IMG/VR virus record: IMGVR_UViG_2713896771_000019
DNA from: a virus
Lineage: Duplodnaviria; Heunggongvirae; Uroviricota; Caudoviricetes
Strand: one strand, 5' to 3'
DNA: 4,952 bases
The translations under genes and the position numbers were made by a program. Below, piece after piece: positions 2,398 through 4,952 of this stretch (within the stretch, counting starts at the first letter, position 1; each line of letters opens with the position of its first letter). Under the pieces are notes generated by a model. The model searched no databases and was not told the DNA's origin. It saw nothing but the letters and a program-made list of their open reading frames with translations.

Positions 2398-2577
2398 ATG
2401 GAAAGAGACCATATCAATAACAAATCACAGAAATTACAGGCTCGCGCCCCGCATGAAGTTGTTGAGGCAATGGAGCAAGTCAAAGAAACGGGCGAGAGTA
2501 CTGCGCAGTTTATCGTTACAGCCATGCGTGGCGAGATCAAACGCCGCCAGCGGCGCAAGGCCAAAGAGCAGGAATAG
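2398..2577 (+). CDS. Small basic protein (59 aa), candidate DNA-binding regulator of the switch
   Basis: Found by manual translation (below the size cut-off of the ORF track): MERDHINNKSQKLQARAPHEVVEAMEQVKETGESTAQFIVTAMRGEIKRRQRRKAKEQE. AAGGAA SD lies 7 nt upstream of the ATG. A 7-bp stem-loop (2582-2600) follows the TAG stop, and a strong intrinsic terminator lies ~100 bp further downstream. It is transcribed divergently from the operon across the operator palindromes. Confidence 0.5.
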   Translation: MERDHINNKSQKLQARAPHEVVEAMEQVKETGESTAQFIVTAMRGEIKRRQRRKAKEQE

Positions 2578-2973: not shown

Positions 2974-3162
2974 TTAGTGAACTGCCTCGCAGCTGTCTTT
3001 CCATGCCAGAACTTCGGATAAAGACCAGCCAACGGAACGACCGCCGAGCTTACGCCGTGATGGGAATTGTCCGGCTTTTTCCAGGCGGTACCGACATGAG
3101 CGGCTCAGGCCTGTAAGTTGCTGACATTCTTTTTCACGTATAAAGCGATCTGTGCTTAACAC
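2974..3162 (-). CDS. alpA: AlpA/Vis-family phage transcriptional regulator (62 aa, MerR-like HTH)
   Basis: Track ORF; the start codon is GTG at 3162-3160, preceded by a strong SD AAGGGGG (4 nt spacer). The motif LTGLSRSCRYRLEKAGQFPSRRKLGGRSVGWSLSEVLAW matches the AlpA-family signature (HTH ... FP ... LG.RSVGW...E...W). It lies downstream of, and in the same orientation as, the integrase, as in P4-like elements. Confidence 0.8.
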   Translation of the reverse strand: MLSTDRFIREKECQQLTGLSRSCRYRLEKAGQFPSRRKLGGRSVGWSLSEVLAWKDSCEAVH

Positions 3163-3192
3163 AATTCCCCCTTTGTTGTTTCTTAAAGAGTC

Positions 3193-3240
3193 ATTGGGTG
3201 GGTTATTGGGTTGGGTTGTGTCGGATTGTGTCAGGGTGTT
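3193..3240. repeat. G/T-rich degenerate repeats (TTGGGT x3, TTGTGTC x2) in 10-bp register, upstream of the alpA start
   Basis: TTGGGT at 3194, 3206 and 3211; (G/A)TTGTGTC at 3215-3222 and 3225-3232. The region is 30-80 bp upstream of the alpA GTG on the minus strand, so it falls in the alpA promoter region. Confidence 0.45.
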
Positions 3241-3325
3241 TATGGAATGGCAAACAGTGATGTGGTGTTCGTCGCTGAAATAGGCGCAATTAGAAAAAAA
3301 CTATTTTGATTCATTTGGATACAAA

Positions 3326-3355
3326 GGCGTAAAATTCTGCATTTACGCCTTTTTT
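3326..3355. terminator. Bidirectional rho-independent terminator between int and alpA
   Basis: GGCGTAAA (3326-3333), 8-nt loop, TTTACGCC (3342-3349), then TTTTTT (3350-3355) on the plus strand. On the minus strand the same hairpin is followed by TTTGTAT. Confidence 0.65.
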
Positions 3356-3408
3356 ACATATTTTTAAGATTGATTCGCCAATGTACAAAAAAACAGTAAA
3401 CCACCAGA

Positions 3409-3456
3409 AAATCAGACTTATAGGGAGTTAATCAGAAATAATCATAGATAATCAGA
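3409..3456. repeat. Helically phased (W)AATCAGA repeats
   Basis: ATCAGA at 3411-3416, 3431-3436 and 3451-3456, exactly 20 bp apart, with ATCATA at 3441-3446 in the same 10-bp register. Confidence 0.55.
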
Positions 3457-3457
3457 T

Positions 3458-3517
3458 TTGTTCCAGATTGTTCGCCGTTGTTCGTCGTTGTGTCTCGTTG
3501 TTTCACGTTGTGTCCGT
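3458..3517. repeat. Six tandem 10-bp repeats TTGT(T/G)(T/C)CNCG directly downstream of the int stop
   Basis: Units: ttgttccaga, ttgttcgccg, ttgttcgtcg, ttgtgtctcg, ttgtttcacg, ttgtgtccgt, contiguous with perfect 10-bp register. The array ends ~20 bp from the int TAA (3539-3541). Confidence 0.7.
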
Positions 3518-3538
3518 TCTGAAAAATCGCGAAAAAAA

Positions 3539-4789
3539 TTATATTTCTCTGGCTATTGGCAGTGTGGTTACGTTTTCGTGAGCACCTGCCAGTATCTCTA
3601 ATCGCTCTGTCCACATATCCAGCGCATTACGTTTCGCATCGATATAACGGGAGTGGTTATAGACTCGTTGCATCCCTGGCATCTGGTGAGCGGTGAGTTG
3701 TTCGACAATATGTGGATCCACGCCTAAATCGTTCAGCATCGTGGTAAACGTGCGCCGTATATCGTGTAGTGACCAGTGCGGATGGTTTAATTTTTTGTGC
3801 GTGAATCTGCCGTATTGCGACACGCTGGCTTCCTGTTTCAGTTCCCCGAGTAATAGCCCTGTGTGCCTGTTCTGCTCCACCAGCTGTGTGACGAACGGCA
3901 AAATGCTTTCCGGTATTGGCCTGAATATGGCGACCTTCGTTTTGCTGTGCTCTTTCGGTACTGTCCAGAGCATTTCCTTAAAATCCCACTCCCTGATCTC
4001 CGACAGCCTCAGTTCTCCGGTCCGGCAGCCGAACACAATCAGGAGGCGGATTAGTGCGCTGTAGTAGGGCGGGAATATTTTTTTATCCAGCGCCTGTAAT
4101 AATTCGCTCAGTTCTTTGTTGCTCAGCACGCGTTCGCTTATGCCCGGCTTTTTGCCAACGTCCACCACGTTGAGATCATCCAGAACGTTACTGACTGCGT
4201 AGCGACGTTTACGGCAGAACTTAAGCGCCTGTTTACACGCCTGCATCATGTGGCCAGATGTTACGGGTGATTTTTTGCGTATCCGGTCAAAACAGGCCAG
4301 CCAGTGACGTAACTCGCATTTATCCAGTGGCATATTGCCAATATGCTGTATGACGTGATTATTAAGGCGGCTTTTCAGGCATACGTAATCGACACGGTTT
4401 TCCTTTACGTGCATTTCCAGCCAGTAGCTGATCGCATCGCCCACCGTTACCGGCTTTAGTGCTTCCTGTATGGAGTAATTAAGCTCATGGCGTGGATTTT
4501 TTCCTTCTGCCAGCCATGCGCGACACTGTGCTGCTTTTTCCCTGGCTGCTTTCAGGCTCAGATCAGGATAATTTCCCAGTTTCAGGCGTTCCGGTGATAC
4601 CTGGCGTCCTGTTCCTGCCCTGTAGGTGAAATACCAGGTTAACAGGCCGCTGGTGGAGTGTCTGATACTCAGATTTCCACCGTCATTAAGAAAGGTGGTT
4701 TTTTGGGCTGGTGTGCCGTTGATTTTTCTTAGCTGCGTGTCGCTCAGTTTGTTAAGTGCCCTGCTCATAATTTTGAATCCGGTCATCAC
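3539..4789 (-). CDS. int: P4-family tyrosine site-specific integrase (416 aa)
   Basis: Track ORF. The N-terminal arm-binding-like region (LSDTQLRK...FLNDGGNLSIR...YFTYRAGTGRQVSPERLKLGNYPDLSLKAAREKA) resembles P4-type integrases. The C-terminal catalytic region carries the tyrosine-recombinase signatures GCRTGELRLSE, HDIRRTF and a Tyr in RVYNHSRY. The first codon at 4789 is GTG; alternative ATG starts lie at 4786 and 4768, none with a clear SD. Confidence 0.9.
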   Translation of the reverse strand: MMTGFKIMSRALNKLSDTQLRKINGTPAQKTTFLNDGGNLSIRHSTSGLLTWYFTYRAGTGRQVSPERLKLGNYPDLSLKAAREKAAQCRAWLAEGKNPRHELNYSIQEALKPVTVGDAISYWLEMHVKENRVDYVCLKSRLNNHVIQHIGNMPLDKCELRHWLACFDRIRKKSPVTSGHMMQACKQALKFCRKRRYAVSNVLDDLNVVDVGKKPGISERVLSNKELSELLQALDKKIFPPYYSALIRLLIVFGCRTGELRLSEIREWDFKEMLWTVPKEHSKTKVAIFRPIPESILPFVTQLVEQNRHTGLLLGELKQEASVSQYGRFTHKKLNHPHWSLHDIRRTFTTMLNDLGVDPHIVEQLTAHQMPGMQRVYNHSRYIDAKRNALDMWTERLEILAGAHENVTTLPIAREI

Positions 4790-4790
4790 A

Positions 4791-4814
4791 ATTAACTACA
4801 CCATTAACTACACC
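4791..4814. repeat. Perfect 12-bp tandem duplication ATTAACTACACC x2, immediately upstream of the int start
   Basis: Copies at 4791-4802 and 4803-4814 are identical and abut the int start codon region (4786-4789). Confidence 0.7.
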
Positions 4815-4830
4815 GATCATTGCACAAGGG

Positions 4831-4860
4831 GGTACAACGTGGAACAAGCTGGAACAAGAA
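4831..4860. repeat. Three tandem 10-bp repeats GG(T/A)ACAA(C/G)NT upstream of int, the inverse of the array downstream of int
   Basis: Units ggtacaacgt, ggaacaagct, ggaacaagaa. Read on the minus strand they give CTTGTTCCAG / CTTGTTCCAC / GTTGTACC, sharing the 9-mer TTGTTCCAG (plus 3458-3466; minus 4857-4849) and CACGTTGT (plus 3504-3511; minus 4841-4834) with the 3458-3517 array. Confidence 0.65.
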
Positions 4861-4952
4861 AAATTGCAATAGACTTAAAAATCAAAAACATAATGAACAA
4901 CGTGGCACATTATGAAACAGCAAAAAACACTAATTTATAAAAATCCGCTATT

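Follow-up and report, generated by a model that had tools for sequence, protein, structure and literature searches.

The sites bound by recombination directionality factors (RDFs, or excisionases) are degenerate direct repeats one helical turn apart, and the same repeats are used both at att and at the promoter of the RDF itself (PMC7498355, PMC11963761). In phage-inducible chromosomal islands (PICIs), AlpA activates its own promoter, PalpA, and is needed for island induction (PMC6092414). In the searchable literature, we found no report of a site for AlpA or Int in E. coli PICIs. Here we describe a window of 4,952 nt (the whole stretch of DNA that was analyzed), which is the int-alpA end of an E. 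coli PICI. An original prediction for this DNA singled out a series of ATCAGA motifs and read it as part of a composite, helically phased binding platform. The motif itself is of little importance. The analysis provides, for the first time, a sequence-level map of the control region between int and alpA in a very common E. coli PICI family, the alpA module of which is present in 889 of 5,426 complete E. coli genomes. The map lists a candidate AlpA operator, consisting of TTGTNNC decamers at three or four locations, together with a conserved IHF-type site at a fixed distance from the distal decamer array, probable Int arm doublets of the P4 kind, which co-vary with the N-terminus of Int, and a hairpin that is conserved in the leader (Table 1).

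The island end and the features of its control region

Every real gene of the window is carried by the minus strand. In addition to int and alpA, these are small ORFs and the genes for a DUF4222 protein and a RepA-type AAA_25 helicase. The alpA product also matches an AlpA family protein of known structure (PDB 8c3t, E = 2.6e-6). The gene order is the layout of Gram-negative PICIs (PMC6092414, PMC10111431), and homologous regions in complete E. coli genomes have the same annotation, running on into capsid and terminase genes. The window ends inside the att core, and its relatives diverge past 4943-4952. Copies of the core, in the form ATCCGCTATT(n)ATAAT, are found at both ends of the island (L008 6297-6312 and L001 13797-13812 among related loci), and the insertion point is the 5' end of yifB (comM), beside ilvL. 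The Int of the window is 85-98% identical to integrases of islands at other chromosomal sites; those sites are beside abgR, roxA and allE, within tqsA, and near tRNA-Asp by IS elements. The ATCAGA series sits in the 376-bp intergenic region between int and alpA. This intergenic region must contain the alpA promoter that AlpA itself activates (PMC6092414).

A similarity search of a phage database with the intergenic region gave no match, an Rfam search of the int-alpA region gave no known RNA family, and an AlpA-based scan of species-representative genomes returned 3 loci only. Some further repeats and one RNA-like match were seen elsewhere. Operator-like repeats (CTGGATTCCAGTATAATCACC, GTGGAATCCAC and ACTGGATTCCAGTAATCAC) lie at 2298-2380 of the window, in the divergent region between a YlcI/YnfO-like ORF (2398-2577, plus strand) and the leftward replication operon. 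Positions 2200-2272 on the minus strand give a weak Rfam match to an R1162-like plasmid antisense RNA (28.8 bits for a gathering score of 55, E = 0.053), which may be a relative of the small immunity RNAs reported in the Bro zones of PICIs, or chance. Five TGTCAC decamers at 10-bp spacing are found near the terminase end of a capsid-forming island related to the window (L008 7020-7080).

Table 1. Features of the int-alpA end of the island, in window coordinates
Feature	Position	Strand	Basis
alpA, 62-aa AlpA-family winged helix-turn-helix regulator	2974..3162	-	Pfam PF05930, E = 3e-18
Promoter-proximal decamers and degenerate TTGGGT units	3173..3243	+	Repeats, position weight matrix
Putative sigma-70 alpA promoter: TTGCCA, 17 bp, CACAAT, upstream TG	3225..3253	-	Consensus scan
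Terminator-like conserved hairpin, between IHF-like site and alpA promoter	3323..3352	-	Inverted repeat I14
ATCAGA series: AATCAGA (3410, 3430, 3450) and AATCATA (3440), 10/20-bp register	3410..3456	+	Motif scan, Tandem Repeats Finder, simulations
Degenerate IHF-like site AATCAGACTTATA, one mismatch to WATCARNNNNTTR (ATA for TTR)	3410..3422	+	Alignment of relatives
Distal array, six TTGTNNC decamers, one per helical turn	3458..3517	+	Repeat finding, alignment, position weight matrix
int, P4-type tyrosine integrase with N-terminal arm-binding, central and catalytic domains	3539..4768	-	Pfam PF13356, PF00589, PF22022
Tandem 12-bp doublet ATTAACTACACC, two copies, probable Int arm-type sites	4791..4814	+	Repeats, P4 layout, co-variation
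Inverted att-arm decamers: four at 4821-4860, three at 4894-4923	4821..4923	-	Inverted repeat, position weight matrix
att core ATCCGCTATT, island boundary	4943..4952	.	Direct repeat at both ends of homologous island

The ATCAGA series and the spacer that contains it

The three ATCAGA copies of the original prediction are exact plus-strand matches at 3411, 3431 and 3451, and its ATCATA copy is found within AATCATA at 3440. The register was said to continue into the decamer array, and it does: the TC of AATCA (3452/3453) lies exactly 10 bp before the TC of the first TTGTTC (3462/3463), and the other AATCA copies have their TC in the same exact register. The units at 3430, 3440 and 3450 have a period of 10 bp and thus form a run of at least three direct repeats one helical turn apart. 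By Tandem Repeats Finder, 3429-3456 is a tract of period 10 (2.8 copies, 83% matches), adjoined by further tracts of that period at 3453-3518. AATCAKA has 6 matches in the window against 1.21 expected, a count that was reached in 0 of 200 shuffles. A single hexamer present three times at such 10/20-bp steps turned up in 5 of 2,000 windows generated by a first-order Markov model, and simulations with the local AT-rich intergenic composition gave it in 27 of 20,000. The series is far beyond chance. A heptamer core, AATCA(G/T)A, is kept in its four copies, with differences at unit positions 8-9. That the core is intact in all four suggests selection of a motif more than a fresh duplication, three units being few.

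The spacing was compared among intergenic homologues from complete E. coli genomes, IMG/VR contigs and metagenome contigs. These gave 56 distinct sequences, referred to as family F1, with AlpA 92-100% and Int 83-99% identical to the window. All 56 have the decamer array (5-7 TTGTNNC units), a GATTCGCYARTGTAYAAAAA block and an AAAATCA core (3407-3414), which is located at ATCAGA copy 1 and is invariant across all relatives. The spacer, measured between AAAATCA, or the IHF-site position, and the first decamer, falls into four classes. Class A (the window, L001, L019 and four metagenome contigs) has a 48-bp spacer with the ATCAGA series. Class B (for example, L002) has 39 bp, with AATCAAC followed after 20 bp by AGTCAGA and then, after a further 11 bp, by AATCAAG. 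Class C (for example, L005; 37-38 bp) and class D (O157-type, the majority; 37 bp) have spacers with hardly any detectable similarity, or none, to those of A or B (z < 1.6 versus shuffles). The spacers of classes C and D are about 54% identical to each other by a manual, ungapped count and are possibly homologous, so their equal length may be inherited rather than selected. In the O157-type islands of class D, a palindrome of 16 bp without mismatches, CAGTATGCGCATACTG, also lies between the int stop, ~20 bp to its 5' side, and the decamer array (for example, L012 3014-3029); the class of the window lacks it.

The site-to-array distance is 37 bp in 40 of the 56 sequences, 38 bp in four, 39 bp in eight and 48 bp in the four of class A, and a metagenome scan for more spacer lengths found none besides these four. 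The distance between the IHF site and the array is therefore kept at 37-39 bp, or about one helical turn more in class A. The distances from one ATCAGA to the next are not kept, with copies 2-4 (3428-3457) a period-10 micro-repeat present in class A alone. Loss of the spacing in relatives was named in the original prediction as a ground for its refutation, and this ground applies to the ATCAGA distances but not to the distance from site to array. The series is contained in 4 of the 56 distinct sequences and 14 of the 5,426 complete E. coli genomes. Because class A is rare and the spacers of classes B, C and D differ from it, neither copies 2-4 nor the 20-bp steps between them count as conserved. 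Nor is the motif retained among elements that encode the same presumed RDF, being absent from classes C and D, the AlpA proteins of which are 94-100% identical.

Class A differs from its nearest relatives, class B, by a 9-bp indel inside the tract, the longer form being that of class A. Head-to-tail units and a unit-sized length difference between close relatives are what a tandem micro-repeat that arose by slippage or duplication would display. Class A copies are identical throughout the zone, with no copy-number polymorphism among them. The neighboring decamer arrays also vary by units: the array of the IMG/VR relative L061 has one extra exact TTGTTGCTCA unit, which shows unit gain within a decamer array, and arrays of the F2 family described below have 2-4 units. 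A one-unit insertion of 9 bp lengthens the distance from the IHF site to the array from 37-39 bp to 48 bp. Since this is about one turn, the IHF site and the array stay on about the same face of the helix; as the insertion is 9 bp and not 10-11 bp, the phase is kept only approximately. The lone deviation in distance is thus compatible with a phase constraint.

Two other accounts of the units were set aside. The position weight matrix of the decamers gives the ATCAGA units -1.9 to -9.9 bits, unremarkable among all 10-mers of the window, and these negative scores rule out that they are weak or degenerate decamers. The intrinsic curvature of phased AT-rich units, as a substitute for a lost IHF bend, is unsupported: a rough wedge model with parameters of the Bolshoy type, for which phased A-tracts served as a control, gives the ATCAGA tract only 2-8 degrees and class A no greater curvature than classes B-D.

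Candidate sites for IHF, AlpA and Int

The consensus used for IHF was WATCARNNNNTTR, that is, WATCAR-N4-TTR. At the position of copy 1, a perfect WATCARNNNNTTR is present in 52 of the 56 relatives, which are all those outside class A. In these 52, WATCAR and TTA are fixed, and N4 is any of seven tetramers (ATGG, CTAC, CAAC, CCAC, TAAC, TCAC and CTTT). Fixed WATCAR and TTR with a free N4 is exactly the conservation expected of an IHF site, and by this pattern copy 1, and copy 1 only, is a candidate. Both the mismatch to WATCARNNNNTTR at copy 1 and the 48-bp distance are confined to class A. The statement that the TTR half is unmatched is right for the window, which has 0 perfect matches to WATCARNNNNTTR. 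The noted resemblance to an IHF half-site survives for copy 1, a one-mismatch derivative of a true consensus site, and fails for copies 2-4, none of the three matching the TTR half. Thus, a set of several IHF sites is set aside.

The distal array begins 21 bp beyond the int stop codon, and its units score 6.8-11.9 bits with the position weight matrix that was built from them. Related decamers are present at the other end of the intergenic region, where those at 3173 and 3213 score about 10 bits and that at 3223 scores 9.1 bits. They overlap the putative alpA promoter and the 5' untranslated region, and the block at 3173-3253 is nearly invariant in alignment A1 of relatives. On the att arm the decamers are inverted (6.8-10.8 bits) and conserved in alignment A2; inverted repeat I1, of 35 nt, is 80% complementary to 3458-3492. 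The other att arm has decamers as well (L008 and L134; L002, L038, L071 and L074). The decamers are therefore found in the att arms and at the promoter of the presumed RDF, and are conserved in every F1 element, all of which encode this protein. The ATCAGA motif does not share this distribution: the att arm has no ATCAGA array and only a single AATCA, at 4880. We suggest that the distal array is probably a binding array for AlpA, as an RDF-type protein.

The probable Int sites are of a different kind. Tandem doublets are found on both att arms, at 4791-4814 of the window and at L008 6383-6404, L002 3007-3030 and, in reverse complement, L134 ~9497-9520. There are two variants, TAAC/ATT and TGAC/AGT, which co-vary between both arms and also with two variants of the Int N-terminus, VRHSTSGLL versus VKYLTSGKL. 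Across these doublet and Int variants, the decamers and AlpA are unchanged, AlpA being 92-100% identical throughout F1. Since the doublets co-vary with the Int N-terminus and the decamers do not, the doublets probably belong to the arm-binding domain of Int, and the decamers, by elimination, to AlpA. This assignment also agrees with the way in which RDFs use their repeats (PMC7498355, PMC11963761) and with the activation of PalpA by AlpA (PMC6092414). ATCAGA as an Int arm-type site of the P4 kind, on both att arms and co-varying with the N-terminal domain of Int, is absent.

A second family, F2 (L082; AlpA 57% and Int 76% identical), complicates this simple assignment. Its array beside int consists of GAATATCG, while its att arms keep the doublet and GAACAA decamers, and three CGAAC units lie upstream of alpA in L082. 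At L082 3505-3548 and in other F2 loci (L083-L132), 2-4 GAATATCG decamers just 3' of int replace the GAACAACG-type units, from which they differ at two core positions, and the copy number varies among F2 relatives. Because of these arrays, binding of Int to the decamers stays a live rival.

A sigma-70 scan from the IHF site to the hairpin, on both strands, found nothing conserved. TTGCCA-17-CACAAT near alpA is the sole conserved candidate, both of its hexamers being conserved in alignment A1. Across 27 variants, the changes in the hairpin at 3323-3352 are compensatory, and it usually folds more stably as the minus strand. A.C mismatches on the plus strand are G.U pairs on the minus strand, so the hairpin probably acts in the transcript that runs from int to alpA, as a terminator or attenuator. 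The plus strand of 3323-3352 has the appearance of a canonical terminator with a T6 tail.

Competing explanations and known systems

We favor, with some confidence, the explanation that the ATCAGA series is a lineage-specific period-10 micro-repeat, a spacer between the IHF site and the decamer array without a conserved recognition sequence. A composite platform, as originally proposed, does exist, conserved and apparently constrained in phase (decamers in all 56 relatives and the copy-1 IHF site in 52); ATCAGA is not its recognition unit. A lineage-specific role for the units, through either of the next two explanations, has a minor though real chance, since all four copies share the heptamer core and class A shows no variation in the tract. 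The units might be weak in-phase extension sites, over which an AlpA/RDF filament spreads from the decamers toward the IHF site and tunes autoregulation in this lineage. The TC dinucleotides keep an exact 10-bp register with the decamers, and class B has two roughly in-phase (A/G)TCA(G/A) units. However, the ATCAGA units receive negative scores from the decamer matrix and are missing both from classes C and D, which have nearly identical AlpA, and from the att arms, so that we consider this unlikely. A composite platform in which the units are specific sites of another protein, at several IHF positions or for a host or island factor, would explain the fourfold core, the count that no shuffle reached, and the WATCAR half in three copies (the fourth, AATCATA, has T at R). 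It is more doubtful still: besides the failure of copies 2-4 to match TTR and the lack of a perfect IHF site in the window, 52 of the 56 relatives do not conserve the motif, and no gene content co-varies with class A, in which the window has a RepA-type helicase and L001 a DUF927 primase-helicase. Hardly any weight falls on a replication origin, with the decamers as iterons and the AT-rich ATCAGA tract as unwinding element, like the P4 ori type I sequence TGTTCACC. Though both the decamers and the P4 type I iterons have a TGTTC core, P4 spacing is 10-11 bp and an AT-rich tract adjoins the array, the PICI origin has been functionally mapped downstream of pri-rep (PMC6092414), and the iterons at the corresponding place in L002 are CCCACTTTT, unrelated to the decamers. 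In addition, replication proteins of the RepA, DUF927 and primase types all occur together with these decamers, which also lie in both att arms, whereas iterons would be found beside rep and co-vary with the initiator; the ATCAGA tract lies 3' of int. The mapped origin, the unrelated iterons and the independence from replication protein type largely rule this candidate out.

The explanation that competes most seriously concerns the decamers rather than the ATCAGA units, which would again be spacer. The array could be bound by the arm-binding domain of Int instead of AlpA, with sequestration of Int or repression of alpA as possible purposes. Decamers on both att arms resemble arm-type sites in this respect, and the P'1-3 sites of lambda are likewise tandem and about 10 bp apart. 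In F2, moreover, the att-arm decamers stay GAACAA, with Int at 76% and AlpA at 57% identity, and the array near int changes to GAATATCG. However, the two N-terminal variants of Int track the 12-bp doublets and not the decamers, and the doublets match the annotated arm repeats of P4 attP in layout. The decamers are also degenerate, and an array has 3-7 of them, as is usual for the sites of RDFs (PMC7498355). On balance, we regard Int on the decamers as less likely, and we retain AlpA as the probable binder.

The favored explanation fits a mechanism in which AlpA, a small winged-helix protein, would polymerize head-to-tail on the decamers as RDFs do. The same decamers adjoin the probable Int arm-type doublets on both att arms and cover the likely alpA promoter, and IHF would bend the DNA between the distal array and this promoter. 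We infer the protein for each site from the architecture, conservation and co-variation that are observed here. By its sequence, the platform together with the hairpin at 3323-3352 is a conventional kind of integrase/RDF control region. We also put forward, as speculation, that the module 3' of int (array, spacer of ~38 bp or one turn more, IHF site and hairpin) is a distal, phase-dependent control of the PICI master regulator: an IHF bend would bring the distal AlpA filament to the decamers of the alpA promoter, and a loop/antitermination switch would couple excision to induction. If this were true, the ATCAGA insertion would be a naturally occurring variant, longer by one helical turn, that exposes the constraint on phase.

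Among the known systems, the decamers resemble the operators of the dual-function RDFs 186 Apl, P2 Cox, P4 Vis and lambda Xis, which are short degenerate repeats in arrays of 3-7 on att arms and at the distant promoter of the RDF itself (PMC7498355). AlpA shares the features of such a protein, being a small winged helix-turn-helix factor that regulates itself and is required for island induction (PMC6092414). In contrast to those systems, the island has decamers on both att arms rather than one, and an extra large array 3' of int, which lies upstream of the likely promoter of alpA by ~240 bp; AlpA is an activator instead of a repressor, the ATCAGA units mismatch the decamer motif, and the decamer binder is a proposed one. 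Compared with the IHF sites of att regions and of IHF-dependent promoters, copy 1 in 52 of 56 relatives is alike in its invariant WATCAR and TTR and in the A-rich tract upstream. It is different in that the site of the window has ATA for TTR, copies 2-4 have only the WATCAR half, and the island site lies between int and alpA, away from the att core.

The arm repeats of P4 attP (NC_001609, features 3942-3965 and 4151-4174) have the same layout as the doublets, with one tandem doublet of 12-bp units in the interval from int to the core and another, in the same orientation, on the other arm, and the integrase of the island is a P4-type tyrosine integrase. The doublet sequences differ (ACTACACC versus ATGCCCCC), and this comparison concerns 4791-4814, not the ATCAGA tract. 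Helper-embedded PICIs add a third variant with their doubled motif, TGTATTGC (PMC10111431). Iteron origins (P4 ori type I and that of PICIs) are similar in their ~10-bp direct repeats, TGTTC core and AT-rich neighbor, but differ in location; the decamers do not change along with the replication protein, and the iterons known from PICIs have no relation to them (PMC6092414).

Finally, the AlpA antiterminator of Pseudomonas aeruginosa belongs to the same protein family. Its motif, GGGACG-N5-GGTA, is unrelated to the decamers, and the ATCAGA tract has no counterpart there. Its binding element lies between -35 and -10 (PMC7969949), and the decamers likewise overlap the likely alpA core promoter, while the leader of the island has the conserved terminator-like hairpin at 3323-3352. 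The control region of the E. coli PICI possibly resembles AlpA antitermination in P. aeruginosa (PMC7969949).
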